Both the position numbers and the translations under genes were made by a program. Below are positions 5,368 to 61,766 of a stretch of 64,000 bases of DNA, piece after piece (position 1 is the first letter of the stretch; each line of letters begins with the position of its first letter). The DNA lies in NCBI GenBank assembly GCA_003971905.1, contig RSEE01000004.1, forward strand, positions 62,001-126,000, in the 5' to 3' direction. Origin of the DNA: Moniliella sp. 'wahieum'. Its lineage: Eukaryota. Below the pieces are notes generated by a model. That model did no database searches. It was not told the DNA's origin and worked only from the letters and a program-made list of their open reading frames with translations.

Positions 5368-5422
5368 GATGCATGATGCCTGATGCCTGATGCCTGATGC
5401 CTGATGCATGATGGCTGATGCC
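5368..5422. repeat. 7-bp periodic array (TGATGCC/TGATGCA)x7
   Basis: TGA at 5374, 5381, 5388, 5395, 5402, 5409 and 5416, in the divergent SRP54/TRS20 promoter. Confidence 0.95.
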
Positions 5423-5565
5423 TACACGTACGCAGGCCTGGGCGGGATCGACTGAAGTTTCACTCACTCCTGGGCGAGTCGTGAGCGGTTGGGTGCTGGC
5501 ACGCTTCCACGCCTCCGTCCAGCCCCCGCCGCCCCCTCCCCCCGCCACCACCAACCCGCGCCGCG

Positions 5566-6146
5566 ATGAGCTATTACTTTGTCATTGTCGGTCCCCGCGA
5601 CGATCCCTGTACGAGGCTGACCTTGCTGCGCGGTCGGGCGGATCGGTGGGCCCATCGTCGCTGCTGGCCACCAGCGCCACCACAGCGTCCAATGGCGTGT
5701 CTCAGGAGAAGGCGGGTCCGTTTGGGTTTGGCCAGCCGCTGGGGCAGGTGTCCGGTGGCGCCGGCTCTGTTCCAGTGGGGTTGGGCGCCAGTGGCCATAC
5801 TCGCGCCGGGCTTAGCTTTGGGAGATACAACGACAAGGATGTGCTGCAGATGATTGCACACAGCAGTCTGGATGCGGTGGAGGATGTGGCGCTGTACGAC
5901 GGCGGACTCTACCTACGAGGGGTGGACAGGATCAACGAGTGGACCACAAGCGCCTTTATTGTCCCCGGCGGCACTCGCTTCCTCATCTTGCACGAGCACA
6001 AACATGACGAGGGCATCCGCAATTTCTTCTGGACGTGTGGGAGTGGGGTGAAACTCAACCTTAACCCGCTTCGCGAGCCCAACTCGCCGGTCCTGTCGGC
6101 TTCCTTTGACTCGCGGGTTCGCGCCAGTGCTCGCAGGTATCTCTAA
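5566..6146 (+). CDS. TRS20: Sedlin / TRAPP subunit Trs20 (TRAPPC2)
   Basis: MSYYFVIVGPRDDP(L)YEADL ... QMIAHSSLDAVED ... YLRGVDRINEWTTSAFIVPGGTRFLILHEHKHDEGIRNFF ... SASFDSRVRASARRYL. Confidence 0.93.
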
Positions 6147-6505
6147 GCTGGCTCTCTCTGTTTTCGTCTTGGTCCCCGCACCCTGCACTCCCACATCAGA
6201 CCTCGCCTGGCCGGATTATACCACTCGATCCAACGTTCAACGTTGGACCTTCCCCCACACCCATTTCTTTTTCTGGTCTGATTTCCGCTTGATCGCTATA
6301 GCACCCCCTCCTGACACATTTCCAAGAGGGATTACCGCGAGTCAGACAGCTCTTCCTCTCACTCTTATAGCCTAACGCCCCTCTATCCAGCCTAGAAAAA
6401 TAGTCCCCCCGCTGTCTCAGTGTCTCTGTCAGTGTAAAGCAAACAGGGAATGAGGAATGTATACAATGTCGTCGATCGTAGCACCATTCGAAAGGAAATG
6501 CGGGG

Positions 6506-57706: not shown

Positions 57707-58530
57707 TGAAGCTTGAACGACAACGAAAACGTTCCTGAGCGGCAACACCATCCCTCGAGGCCAGCTGGGCAAGCTGTCAATAGATGAGGGTGAATCACGT
57801 GAGCGCGTTAGCCCACACGTTGTCGTTTATACGTTCATCGATCATCGATCATCGTACCTTGAAGTATTACATTCTGCGTCTTTCAACCTTCAATTTTTCA
57901 AGCCCTTCAAGCCCTTCCTCAAGTTTCCCAACTGTAGAGCATCGGCATGTGAAGGTGACGTGGCACCCGATGCTGGCGATGCTGGCGATGACACCGTCAC
58001 GCATGACGGACGTGTCGAGGGCGGCAAAACGGGTGTGGCAAAACGTGTGGCGTATGGCGGCAGGCGCGTGGGGAAGACGGCCTCAAAGGGATGCGGGTAG
58101 CGTGGTACTCTGCGATAAACGCGAAATACTGGTTGAACGTTACGCGTTACGCGTCACATGTTACATGTTACACGTTAAACGTTAAACGTTAAAAACGTTA
58201 AAAGCGCATAGTACAGGGGGACCCAAGGCTCCCAAGACCCCAAAGGTTGAACTCGCATCGCCGTAGTGTAACGTGACGCGTGACGTCCCAGGGAGGATGA
58301 GATGAATGCCATTAACCCTATCGGCAGCCTGTACTGAATATCAAGGTAGTTTCCTCTGCGCCCCCATCAGAACTGTCTAATGTGAAGCGACGTATCTCGA
58401 TGGGGGCAGAGGAGAGGCAGTTCATAGGCACGTTTATCTTGATTGATCGGATCCGTACACACTGCCGGCAGGGACACCCAACCCGCGCAGCGCTAAGCGC
58501 TAAACGAAGAACACGTTGAACGTTGACATG
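57707..58530. repeat. Multiple 7-bp periodic arrays in the tubulin/OSH divergent intergenic region
   Basis: TGA-AGCT-TGA at 57707; TCA-TCGA x3 at 57835-57851; eight in-phase TTA/TCA junctions at 58140-58191; TGA-CGCG-TGA at 58274; TAA-GCGC-TAA at 58494; TGA-ACGT-TGA-CATG at 58517. Confidence 0.9.
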
Positions 58531-59061
58531 CTGGCATCGATGGGTCGCAGTGTCAATGAGGGTATAGCAGCGTTGACAGTATCGGCAATGTTGGCAGTGT
58601 TGGTAGCCTGGGCCCTGGCCCCATTTGCGGCCCCGCATTGATATTGATTTCAGTCAGACACAGAAGAGATGCGGGAGCACTGAGGCATTGGGCGCCGTCA
58701 CCGTTTGGCAACGTTCAACTGTGATACGTACTTATTTCCCCAGGTGGGCTCCGACTAGGCGCGTGGCGAGGCTGGCAAGACAGGACCGAGGGTTGGGCGT
58801 GCGGGGCATGACGACAGTGTGCCCAGGACCGGCGGTGCGCGGTGCGCGGGGCCGGTGCCTGCATTAGGGTTGCCATCACTATTGTCCATCAACTTGAACC
58901 TCCTTTCCCCGCCGCAGACAACTTGTGTTTGGGGTTGGGCTGCCACCAACTCTCCCCTGCACCTCCACGTTTAGCACTACCCTCCCCGTCCCCTCCCCCC
59001 TCTTCATCAGCACCCACGTGAGCGCACCTGCGCCCTTGTATTTCCCTACCACGAGCACACT

Positions 59062-60359
59062 ATGGCATTCTCCGGTCTACTCGGCTCGTCCAAGACGCCG
59101 CCCAAGGACAAGGATCAGGAGAATGCTGACGACATGGAGGAGCTCGACGAGGAGAATGGCATATCCTCAGCCTGATTGGACAGCTTCGCATTGGGATGGA
59201 TCTTTCTCGCGTTACCCCCTACCCACCTTCGTCCTTGAGCCTCGTCGATGCTCGAGCGCATCACTGACTTTATGTCTCACCCCGACCTCATCTTTGGCGC
59301 GGGTAAGATCGAGGACCCAACGGAACGTTTTGTCGCGGTCATGCGCTACTACCTTGCCGGTTGGCATATTAAGCCCAAGGGCGTAAAGAAGCCGTGCGTC
59401 TTTTCTAACCTCCCCGCCCACTCCCTTCGGCGCGATTCCACCTCTAATTTCATCATGTGCATCTGCAGGTATAATCCTGTGCTGGGAGAGTTTTTTGAGT
59501 GTTCTTACACTTACGCTGACGGTTCTCACGGTTATTATATCGCAGAGCAAGGTGAGTAGCTCCTTTTATTAGGTTTTGCTTGACACTAATTCCAGTTCGC
59601 CAGTGTCACACCACCCCCCCATCAGCGCCTACTTTTATTGTTCGCCCGACCACAATGTGCTTATTTATGGCGAGCTGAAGCCGAAGAGCAAATTCTTGGG
59701 TAACAGTGCCGCGACGCTCATGGGGGGTGAAAGCCGAGTTGTGCTCCTTGACCGCCCCAACGATGGGGAGTATGTTATTGGGATGCCCAACATGTACGCC
59801 GCGGAATCCTGTTCGGCAAGATGATCTTGGAATTGGGCGACACGTCCCAAATCGAGTGTAAGGCCACTAACATGGCCTGCACGGTCGAGTTCAAGACCAA
59901 GGGCTACTTTACCGGCACATACAACGCCATTGAGGTAAGGTGGCCAAACAGGGCAAGAGCGTGGGCCAGGTGAGCGGTAAGTGGTCAGATGAGATGAGTT
60001 ACAAGAACGGGTCGACAGGCAAGACATCGGTCCTTTTTTCAGCCAAATCTGCAGTGATTGCCCCGAAATCAGTCCGTCCCGAAGCTGAGCAAGCTCCAAA
60101 TGAGTCGCGTCGTCTGTGGGCGCAGGTAACCAAGGCGATCCTGACCAAGGATATGAACGGGGCGACTGAGCACAAGACGGCAATCGAGGATGCGCAGCGG
60201 CGTTCGACGCGAGAACGCGAGGAAAACGACTTGGATTTTGTTCCTCGATTCTTTGTTTATGTTGAATCGCTTGGGAGATACGTGCCCCGCATTCATGCTC
60301 TGCCAGCTCCGTTCAAGGCCCCCGCTGTGGTAGACTACTTTTCCCAGTTGCACGCGTAA
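59062..60359 (+). CDS. OSH6: Oxysterol-binding protein homologue, Osh6/Osh7 class
   Basis: QLRIGMDLSR, LPTFVLEPR, MLERITDFMSHPD, GWHIKPKGVKKP|YNPVLGEFF, AEQ|VSHHPPISA, KSKFLGNSAA, ESRRLWAQVTKAI. Introns at about 59394-59468 and 59552-59603. Confidence 0.93.
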
Positions 60360-61766
60360 ACTACTCCTCCTCGGCTTCGTGTCCCACTGTATCACTCTCT
60401 TAGCATTGTTCAACCGGTCAACATACTTGCTGTGGTTTCCCTCCACGTCGGAATCATTCTTTTTCACCCTCTCCCCACCCCGATCTGCTGGCAGACCCAA
60501 TAATAGTCACAAATTCCTGCGCTTGTTGCCGCCGTACCACCGTCCTAAGCAGTAGCGACTGAGGACGCGGGTATTCTGCCCATGTATATCCAGTGTGGAG
60601 GATACCCATCAGACTTCAATCCATAAGCACTAATAGCCGTTTGAACGTGATTCTTAGCCCGAACGACTGAGGGGTATTTAGGCCCCGCCCTGGCTGGTTG
60701 CAGTGGTGCTACACCCCACATGACCGCTTCGGCTGGCTCATGCCAATGGGCAGTACCAGTTGGTAACCGGCAATGCTACTATTGTCGATTGGCTGGACCG
60801 GTCGGGTGCAGCTCTTAGCGACATGCGCTAAACCATTTAAATTAGCCGCTGACCGGTGACCGGTGACCGGCGAGGCCCACCCAACCCAGAGACACAAGTC
60901 GTACTGGTGGGGCAATGTGGAGTCCATTCCGCTACAGCGGAACTGGTGGAGGCATATGCGCAAACTCTGCGTCTGTTTGGGCGCACAAAAGAATAACCCT
61001 ATCCCCAAGGTGCACAAAAAGGGGCGACCCAAAAGCAGAGCTTCTTGGCGTCTGACCACCACCAACTCTTCCTCCAAGCTTCCAACCTTCCCAAACGATC
61101 CTTTGGTTACTGAAGCTCTGATCGCTGACTCTGCGTACTTGGAAGAAAACTTCATCGCTTGCAACTGGCGCGAGTGGCCTTCGAAGGGATGCACGACAGG
61201 CGCAAGCTCGATTGCGCACGCCGGTCTATTCACCCTCCAGTGGCGAGCAATCGTAACACCACTGGTAGTGGTTCTGCTAATGCCGGCAAGAAGGAATACG
61301 ACGGGAATAAAGTTCACAGACCAAAGCTTGCCCATGCTTTGACTCTGTCTACGACCCGTTGTACATACCTTGTGTTTCCTCTCAAAATCTATTTATCCTT
61401 TTTTCGTGCTTGGGTACTTGTCTCGATGTAGCTCTTGAGTTGGCGTGAACGTTGAATTGAGCGAGCGCTGAGCGCGTTGAACGGCAAGCTTCATCAGGCC
61501 TGGGGATGGTGCGATTTCTTCTGTAGCTGTAACCGGTTACCGGCCGATTGGCGACTGCGAACGCCTGGGGGAGGGCCGACGCCGTGCCGATGACAACCGC
61601 TGTAGCCCCAGAACGCTTGGCGGCAAAAAGCCTCCGCCGCCTCCGCCGCCGGTGGGAGGAGGGACAGGGTGTTGAAAGTTTGACGCTTAGAGGCATCGCG
61701 GCCATGTCGATGCGCACAGGGCGGGGTGCTCCACGCTCCACCACCATCGCCAGCATCCCGCCTGGC

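Follow-up and report, generated by a model that had tools for sequence, protein, structure and literature searches.

We identified a family of short tandem arrays in a 64,000-nt window of the Moniliella sp. 'wahieum' genome (GenBank assembly GCA_003971905.1, contig RSEE01000004.1, positions 62,001 to 126,000 of the forward strand; coordinates below count from the first letter of the window), in which identical T-N-A junctions 7 bp apart enclose palindromic tetramers of many different sequences. The arrays are genuine, dense and sharply delimited, and their host belongs to a fungal lineage that has been little sampled. Writing J for T-N-A, h for the two bases n1n2 and h' for the reverse complement of h, the arrays read ...J h h' J h h' J..., and the hits merge into 40 loci, about 20 of which (among them 42, 1673, 8211, 13746, 19183, 39501, 45601, 45833, 46044, 47188, 57631, 58161 and 58176) go beyond those listed in a first-pass annotation made from the letters of the window; each array that it had listed was present on rereading and recomputation. 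The best explanation is that the process behind the arrays is recent or still running and that they are its by-products. Specifically, we give about an even chance to a lineage-specific mutational process in which short hairpin or template-switch synthesis generates palindromic heptamers anchored at T-N-A, after which slippage copies them. The mutational rather than selected origin is the firmer part of this reading, and its detailed steps are more conjectural.

Chance expectations come from dinucleotide-preserving shuffles of the window, 40 of them for the count of period-7 repeats. The window holds 37 exact tandem repeats with a period of 7 and a length of 14 bp or more, where the shuffles give 3.8 +/- 2.0, and a listing by Tandem Repeats Finder (TRF) recovers the same arrays. 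The first-pass annotation had described a 7-bp period with a palindromic core, and in 20 of the 37 repeats the unit is indeed a 6-bp palindrome plus one base, as compared with 0.55 (maximum 2) in shuffles. All but one of these 20 palindromic units (19/20) have the form A-N4-T, so that the junction reads T-N-A. Non-palindromic period-7 repeats are also enriched, about 5-fold (17 vs ~3.3), and symmetric units at periods 5, 8 and 9 show no excess over shuffles.

The annotation had proposed a count of spacer lengths against shuffled controls, and such a count, run on identical T-N-A pairs with spacers of 0-10 bases, bears out its spacing: the excess lies at spacer 4 only (85 vs 34.9; spacer 2, 32 vs 35.2; spacer 3, 49 vs 36.1; spacer 5, 30 vs 37.1). 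Moreover, it sits wholly in cores that are reverse-complement palindromes (49, with 1.8-2.2 expected), non-palindromic spacer-4 cores being near expectation at 36 vs ~33. Mirror (abba) words, which have equal prior probability, make up 2 of the 85 TNA-N4-TNA cores, as against the 49 reverse-complement palindromes. By plus-strand junction, palindromic tetramers were found 30 times with TGA (0.83 expected), 10 times with TCA (0.87), seven times with TAA (0.13) and twice with TTA (0.17). The junctions A-N-T (1 vs 2.0), C-N-G (9 vs 7.8) and G-N-C (7 vs 7.5) are all at chance. This strictness points to an enzyme or to a highly specific DNA step. Junction variants of the kind that the annotation allowed for do occur, the second junction at 24474 being TGG (TGA-CATG-TGG-CATG).

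With identical junctions, 12 of the 16 possible palindromic tetramers serve as cores, or 13 counting GATC; the annotation had counted 11. The cores are thus arbitrary and yet exactly self-complementary, which implies that one half is copied from the other half, and their number argues that no single protein or factor reads them. Around a palindromic core the centre base N is identical at both junctions in 49 cases and differs in eight, and perfect 10-bp palindromes of the form TNA-pal4-TN'A are at chance (4 vs 2.0). Because the centre base is directly repeated and not complemented, simple fold-back, which predicts TNA-core-TN'A, is excluded, and the unit behaves like a true 7-bp tandem step.

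Lone palindromes outside the arrays occur in the number expected by chance, both as A..T hexamers (175 vs 169 expected) and as T-N-A odd palindromes (184 vs 184). The chance number is thus reached without the 40 array loci, which add to it, and this argues that the palindromes were made by events and not recruited from existing sites; 7-bp duplication of pre-existing odd palindromes was rejected as a candidate on this ground. Many different cores are used, and some are mixed in single chains with common junctions, as in TGA-TCGA-TGA-AGCT-TGA (27434) and TGA-TCGA-TGA-GGCC-TGA (51889), and also at 58132-58203, so that repeated independent events are indicated and not the expansion of one motif. 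Decayed copies comprise 24 cores that a single mismatch separates from a palindrome (13.1 expected) and 49 pairs in which one junction deviates by one base (29.3 expected), implying a change of ~5-8% (roughly 6%) per site that is similar in core and junction. This pattern looks like that of fairly young elements and is neutral in appearance. As a separate observation, the whole window is short of C-N-G and G-N-C odd palindromes and of C/G-framed hexamer palindromes, by 14-28% relative to the shuffles, which may reflect a general avoidance of GC-rich palindromes.

The anatomy of the arrays is also ordered. Exact period-7 runs that obey the grammar were counted at 10 nt (19 observed, 10.0 expected from shuffles), 11 nt (8, 2.2), 12 nt (15, 0.73), 13 nt (7, 0.25), 14 nt (6, 0.02) and 15 nt or more (13, 0). 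Among the short forms, J h h' J h is seen most often; written out as TNAn1n2-n2'n1'-TNAn1n2, it is a 5-bp direct repeat around two bases that reverse-complement the last two bases of the repeat. It accounts for 9 of the 15 runs of 12 nt, where shuffles give 0.13 and random phases would give ~4.3, while the bare J-core-J form without extension shows no clear enrichment (3 vs 1.1). Arrays tend to end where one of the blocks J, h and h' meets the next (with phases pooled, T, c1 and c3 are used 31, 23 and 25 times, the other four 11-16 times), and the extension past a complete J is 0, 1, 2, 3, 4 or 5 bases on 31, 10, 18, 8, 9 and 4 of 80 sides. Most loci hold fewer than two full units, consisting of a single unit pair of 10-15 bp, and the largest array has eight units.

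To place the loci relative to genes, we used a crude coding map derived from codon usage, in which gene models are rough since the genes contain introns. Coding DNA holds 6 of the 40 loci where 39% of the window is called coding, none (0/40) under the strictest setting (17% coding) and 13 under the most lenient (64%), in agreement with the annotation's remark that it had noticed none in conserved coding exons. Its further claim that they lie mostly upstream of genes stands only roughly: when each locus is placed by its nearest coding segment, upstream positions account for 26, downstream ones for 13 and a position inside for one, with a median distance of 484 bp on these crude models. The loci are concentrated in a small number of intergenic regions, at 27.4, 45.6-46.1, 51.7-51.9 and 57.6-58.5 kb. 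Coding avoidance is no evidence of function, because any insertion of 7 bp, which shifts the reading frame, predicts it.

We hypothesize that the arrays arise as follows. A nick, break or stalled 3' end beside T-N-A would provide the start, from which synthesis would run forward through T-N-A-n1-n2; the end would then turn back, take two or three bases (n2'-n1'-T) from the complementary strand, realign on the T and copy N-A-n1-n2 a second time. The net change would be from TNAn1n2 to TNAn1n2-n2'n1'-TNAn1n2, a gain of 7 bp. Slippage of whole units would subsequently add or remove copies, possibly aided by pairing between neighbouring units, which can form a 5-bp stem around a T-N-A triloop, and variant units would arise by point mutations. 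In favour of this model stands the specificity described above (period 7, spacer 4, palindromic spacers, T-N-A and an identical N), which is far above chance, and the depletion of arrays in coding DNA fits events that shift the frame by +7. The model is likewise favoured by palindromes that exceed the chance number, by the variety and mixing of cores, by neutral-looking decay, by the frequency of the 12-nt form, by the stem and triloop seen in predicted folds and by the minority of palindromic cores among comparable metagenome arrays. Among three readings offered by the first-pass annotation, the footprint of a template-switching mutational process is the one that we favour, given the arbitrary cores and the alike decay of core and junction.

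Several observations weigh against this model. Generic template switching should use A-N-T, C-N-G and G-N-C as well, and the enrichment of T-N-A only points to a sequence-specific enzyme. Turn-backs of one or three bases would give periods 6 and 8, which show little or no excess, so that the rule is rigid; the model leaves both the exclusive use of T-N-A and the exclusive outcome of +7 unexplained. The preferences for the 12-nt form and for block borders are modest (p ~0.01-0.02), and decaying 14-nt duplications could explain part of them, while the long arrays lack the lengths 19, 26 and 33 (12+7k) that would be expected from 12-nt seeds. Moreover, the junction has its purine centre (TGA/TAA) on the sense strand of the nearest gene at 27 of 40 loci (p = 0.04, with clustered and hence non-independent loci), a bias that the model does not predict. 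Finally, the proposed states before and after an event are read from the sequence of a single window in one strain.

The dependence on T-N-A leads us to a bolder and tentative version of the mutational reading, which we think possible but would not bet on: this branch of smut-related fungi may possess a T-N-A-specific nickase, nuclease or domesticated transposase, whose breaks would be repaired via a fixed hairpin or turn-back, adding 7 bp with a new palindrome, roughly every 1.6 kb of genome. We know of no T-N-A nickase in this fungus. The process might perhaps be the same as the one behind the small repeats of Ustilago maydis, whose transposon-poor genome is described as carrying numerous 10-bp intergenic repeats, for which an origin as footprints of past transposon activity has been suggested (Laurie et al. 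2012 and Schirawski et al. 2010, as cited in PMC4081816). As described there, those repeats resemble the present loci in being tiny and scattered between genes of a fungus of the same subphylum, and the minimal TNA-N4-TNA here also measures 10 bp; the likeness to arrays of period 7 with a palindromic core is one of size and setting, drawn from descriptions only.

We consider it unlikely that a cut-and-paste transposon or other sequence-specific nuclease left the arrays as its footprints. On this account a staggered cut at T-N-A-n1-n2 would give a 5-bp duplication, a hairpin on the flank opened 2 nt off its tip would give two P-type bases, and repeated hits in open intergenic DNA would give the clusters. 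The layout of the 12-nt form speaks for it, as do the clustering of loci in few intergenic regions, the suitability of T-N-A specificity to an enzyme and the proposal made for U. maydis. However, no transposase, integrase or reverse-transcriptase domain was found among the 74 scanned open reading frames (ORFs) of at least 200 aa in the window, and no dispersed or inverted-repeat element family was found within it. End joining would also be expected to leave a spectrum of footprints, whereas periods 5, 6, 8 and 9 are without comparable excess.

Flank hairpins leave palindromic footprints in excision by hAT, Transib and Mutator elements. Footprints of hairpin transposases and V(D)J-type P nucleotides resemble the 12-nt form in that a short direct repeat of the target flanks bases complementary to the flank; they are unlike the arrays in that here there is no element in the window, the sole outcome is +7 and T-N-A lies asymmetrically in the 5-bp repeat. 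Three variants of the idea were rejected. A 3-bp T-N-A duplication with four leftover transposon-end bases would correspond to the bare form, which lacks clear enrichment, and 12-13 cores would need equally many end types; a hAT-type hairpin predicts, by our own derivation, an A-N-T centre, a junction that is at chance here; and variable-length addition of P nucleotides is at odds with the lack of enrichment at periods 5, 6, 8 and 9.

Ordinary microsatellite dynamics offer a second alternative, which we judge to be distinctly unlikely. Here, chance proto-repeats made of a palindrome plus one base would slip more than others, folded looped-out units escaping repair, and palindromic loops do evade mismatch repair in yeast. 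In keeping with such dynamics, arrays reach eight units and contain point variants, non-palindromic period-7 repeats are enriched too, and 6 of the 10 exact runs of at least 17 nt fit 10+7k in length, three being 17, two 24 and one 31 nt long. The composite array at 58132-58203 shows three different one-base routes from the non-palindromic ACACGT to palindromes, and every palindromic variant in it is doubled while the non-palindromic intermediate ACACGTT is single. Predicted folds of eight longer arrays, taken as single-stranded DNA, yield 5-bp stems with a T-N-A triloop and 1x1 mismatches at the remaining centre bases, and in three of the eight no more than 4 of 200 shuffles fold at least equally well. 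Nevertheless, hairpin stability is predicted to be low (-1.9 to -15.3 kcal/mol, z -0.05 to -2.8), folding gives no reason for T-N-A over A-N-T, and the birth of arrays is left unexplained, since a lone 7-nt unit cannot fold. Array loci also add to the chance count of palindromes rather than deplete it.

A metagenome comparison further weighs against this account. Metagenome contigs were scanned for (TGA-A-SS-T)x3-TGA, which can be matched by two palindromic and by two non-palindromic cores, and at least 121 loci were found. Among the matches listed, 109 arrays were homogeneous, with the cores ACCT (60), AGGT (26), ACGT (17) and AGCT (6), so that palindromic cores are a minority (23, against 86 non-palindromic) and palindromy is no general property of heptamer repeats. 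The flanks of the listed loci show no general enrichment of the grammar, and none of these loci has homology to the window. Only one listed contig, L027, carries two AAGCTTG arrays, 2.5 kb apart, and its 12 ORFs have no Pfam match. Long TCAACGT / TCAACGC / TCAACCT heptamer arrays, several per contig, were seen on L023 (2826-3129), L035 (912-1341) and L047 (4-125); they are a different, near-homogeneous heptamer satellite, and the metagenome organisms are unrelated.

That the arrays are selected cis elements, as the first-pass annotation had suggested with its symmetry-encoded element, seems improbable to us, whether they are taken as phased sites for a dimeric or multimeric factor, as a structure-forming promoter element or as three-frame stop arrays in untranslated regions. 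The loci are intergenic, with most lying upstream of the nearest coding segment, TGA/TAA tends to stand on the sense strand of the nearest gene, and decayed copies are few relative to perfect ones. Some hexamers, such as ACGCGT and ACGT-core sites, are known fungal factor sites, which provides a lead and not a test. Against selection, the copies share no constant recognition sequence, decay affects core and junction to a like degree with no sign of constraint, most loci are a single unit pair, and the avoidance of coding DNA is expected from any 7-bp insertion. A phased array of TGA half-sites for one factor, another of the annotation's suggestions, is hard to reconcile with so many arbitrary cores, and the 7-bp period is out of step with the helical repeat. 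As to a hairpin or cruciform element, the single-core loci (10-15 bp), which are most of the loci, are too short for folding, and the longer arrays fold weakly as single strands. Sites for AP-1/Gcn4, CRE, heat-shock and b-locus (TGA-N9-TGA) factors were rejected, as their motifs mismatch the repeat layout. It is hardly credible that the arrays are an assembly or sequencing artefact: only one public sequencing run shares a small part of the region (0.07 of sampled words), but coding avoidance, point-mutated copies and nested duplications would not be expected of an artefact, and no error mode of sequencing is known to us by which T-N-A-anchored palindromic heptamers would be inserted.

Returning to template-switch synthesis, known mutational systems provide partial parallels. 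In quasipalindrome or template-switch mutations and snap-back insertions, copying of the complementary strand gives exact short palindromes, followed by realignment on microhomology; the known cases perfect longer existing quasipalindromes or make variable insertions. Here, unlike in those cases, the centre base stays a direct repeat, and site and length are fixed. The arrays may also be likened to repeats made in vitro by a strand-displacing polymerase with a nicking enzyme, in which a fixed enzyme site alternates with palindromic sequence, although that is a test-tube reaction with bacterial enzymes and would serve as a mechanistic analogy only. Short tandem repeats in general share the head-to-tail short unit, 2-8 copies, point variants and a location in non-coding DNA; they differ in that the unit here is set by a grammar (any A-N4-T palindrome plus one base) and not by sequence. 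In the full texts searched, which include few subscription journals, no description of this grammar was found, the nearest counterpart being the 10-bp repeats of U. maydis. Judging from excerpts of the respective sources, the palindromic repeats of Fusarium mitochondria (PMC7218506) and a 19-bp, palindrome-cored promoter insert of Pseudocercospora (PMC8252799) are unrelated.

The window has a G+C content of 58%, and its housekeeping genes, as identified by Pfam, include SRP54, a proteasome ATPase, a Pex10-like protein, porin, tubulin and others. The best named relatives of the porin are from Tilletiaria anomala (57% identity) and from Parajaminaea, Exobasidium and Jaminaea (53-54%), while other assemblies carry a porin 70-84% identical to that of the window; the Pex10-like ORF matches Testicularia, Tilletia and Pseudozyma. 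By these protein comparisons the host is a basidiomycete near Ustilaginomycotina without a close named genome, in line with the fungal origin assumed at first pass. The sole Rfam match in the window is a transfer RNA (tRNA) gene (21685-21766, plus strand, 51.3 bits), with the (AGCTTGA)n array of 21554-21596 lying ~90 bp upstream of it, and no Rfam model matches over any array.

Other repeats occur beside the arrays and within genes. At 8272-8290, CGTTGAA-C-TTCAACG forms a 15-bp odd palindrome in which direct and inverted heptamer copies adjoin. The word CAGTACTCAG, which contains TCA-GTAC-TCA, has at least five copies in 150 bp at 45885-46035, partly forming a 13-bp tandem repeat at 45910-45945, and so constitutes a local family around one unit of the heptamer grammar. 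A 15-bp repeat, ATAGCCTTGAGGAGG, has eight copies at 46544-46665, within or adjoining a minus-strand ORF with an SH3 domain. Nested coding repeats (periods 9, 18, 39 and 78) lie at 52820-53300, in the N-terminal part of the ORF at 52373-53752 (plus strand), which belongs to the CAP / cysteine-rich secretory family and looks Gly/Ala/Ser-rich, repetitive and secreted. The ORF at 37580-39208 (minus strand, 543 aa) has no Pfam family and no homologue in a word-indexed protein search, and it may be a lineage-specific gene or no real gene.

Table 1. Array loci in the window, by position of first and last letter.
Position	Sequence or structure	Remarks
42..51	TGA-TCGA-TGA	single core
1673..1682	TAA-TTAA-TAA	single core
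5368..5423	GATGCAT/GATGCCT/GATGGCT, 8 units	palindromic ATGCAT+G beside one-off variants; between SRP54 (-) and Sedlin (+) genes
6231..6244	(CAACGTT)x2	AACGTT+C
8207..8220	(TCGATAA)x2	ATCGAT+A
8272..8283	TGAAC-GT-TGAAC	12-nt form; inverted copy next
10439..10453	(TGAAGCT)x2.1	
13746..13755	TGA-ACGT-TGA	10 nt only; may be chance
14747..14761	(CCTGAGG)x2.1	AGGCCT+G
18875..18899	GATGCATGATGC, then TGATA-TA-TGATA	
19033..19065	(TGATGCA)x3 + TGA	mutated unit next; upstream of glycosyltransferase-2 gene
19181..19192	CC-TCA-GGCC-TCA	12-nt form
21554..21596	(AGCTTGA)x4.4	plus degenerate unit; upstream of tRNA gene
24473..24490	TGA-CATG-TGG-CATG-TG	imperfect junction
27395..27450	TGA-AGCT-TGA-TGCC-TCA, then TCGA-TGA-TCGA-TGA-AGCT-TGA	cluster; mixed cores, common junctions
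27501..27512	TGA-TCGA-TCA	rare perfect 10-bp palindrome
27576..27592	(AGCTTGA)x2.4	
30785..30804	(GCCATGG)x2.9	CCATGG+G; sole symmetric unit without A..T frame
39112..39135	(ATGTGAC)x3.4	ACATGT+G
39498..39510	CGG-TAA-CCGG-TAA	
45601..45611	TCA-CGCG-TCA	
45672..45692	(TGACATG)x3.0	
45831..45842	CG-TCA-CGCG-TCA	12-nt form
45907..45947	TCA-GTAC-TCA	repeated within 13-bp repeat CAGTACTCAGCCC
46044..46055	TAATC-GA-TAATC	12-nt form
46100..46124	TGA-GATC-TCA-CGAA-TCA-TGCA-TCA	mixed chain
47188..47199	TCAGC-GC-TCAGC	12-nt form; third TCAGC next
50111..50127	TGA-ATCT-TCA-TCGA-TGA	
51706..51736	(AAGCTTC)-type array	4.4 imperfect units
51846..51858	GT-TGA-ACGT-TGA-A	
51878..51923	TGAGGCC-GA-TGATCGA-TGAGGCC-TGAGG, then (TGAACAT)x2.3	cluster; nested 16-bp duplication
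57629..57640	GA-TCA-TCGA-TCA	12-nt form
57706..57717	T-TGA-AGCT-TGA-A	
57835..57854	(TCATCGA)x2.9	
58132..58203	ACGCGTT x2, ACATGTT x2, ACACGTT x1, AAACGTT x2-3	composite array
58272..58285	(CGTGACG)x2	ACGCGT+G
58489..58503	(AGCGCTA)x2.1	
58513..58526	(ACGTTGA)x2	
60846..60870	(TGACCGG)x3.0	
61446..61475	TGA-ACGT-TGA, then GAGCGCT-GAGCGC	
61530..61543	TAA-CCGG-TTA-CCGG	

If the arrays are the scars of a running process, they would represent a new and very specific insertion signature, of +7 bp, anchored at T-N-A and with the palindrome made in place, and the process would occur often enough to remodel the majority of intergenic regions in a compact fungal genome. Behind it would stand a definite activity, of repair or of a nuclease, which genetic work in tractable relatives could uncover and which might account for the small repeats long known from smut fungi. 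For strain typing, moreover, the arrays would offer abundant and fast-evolving markers. Should they instead prove to be conserved, they would constitute a symmetry-defined promoter element with interchangeable cores, which would itself be unusual.

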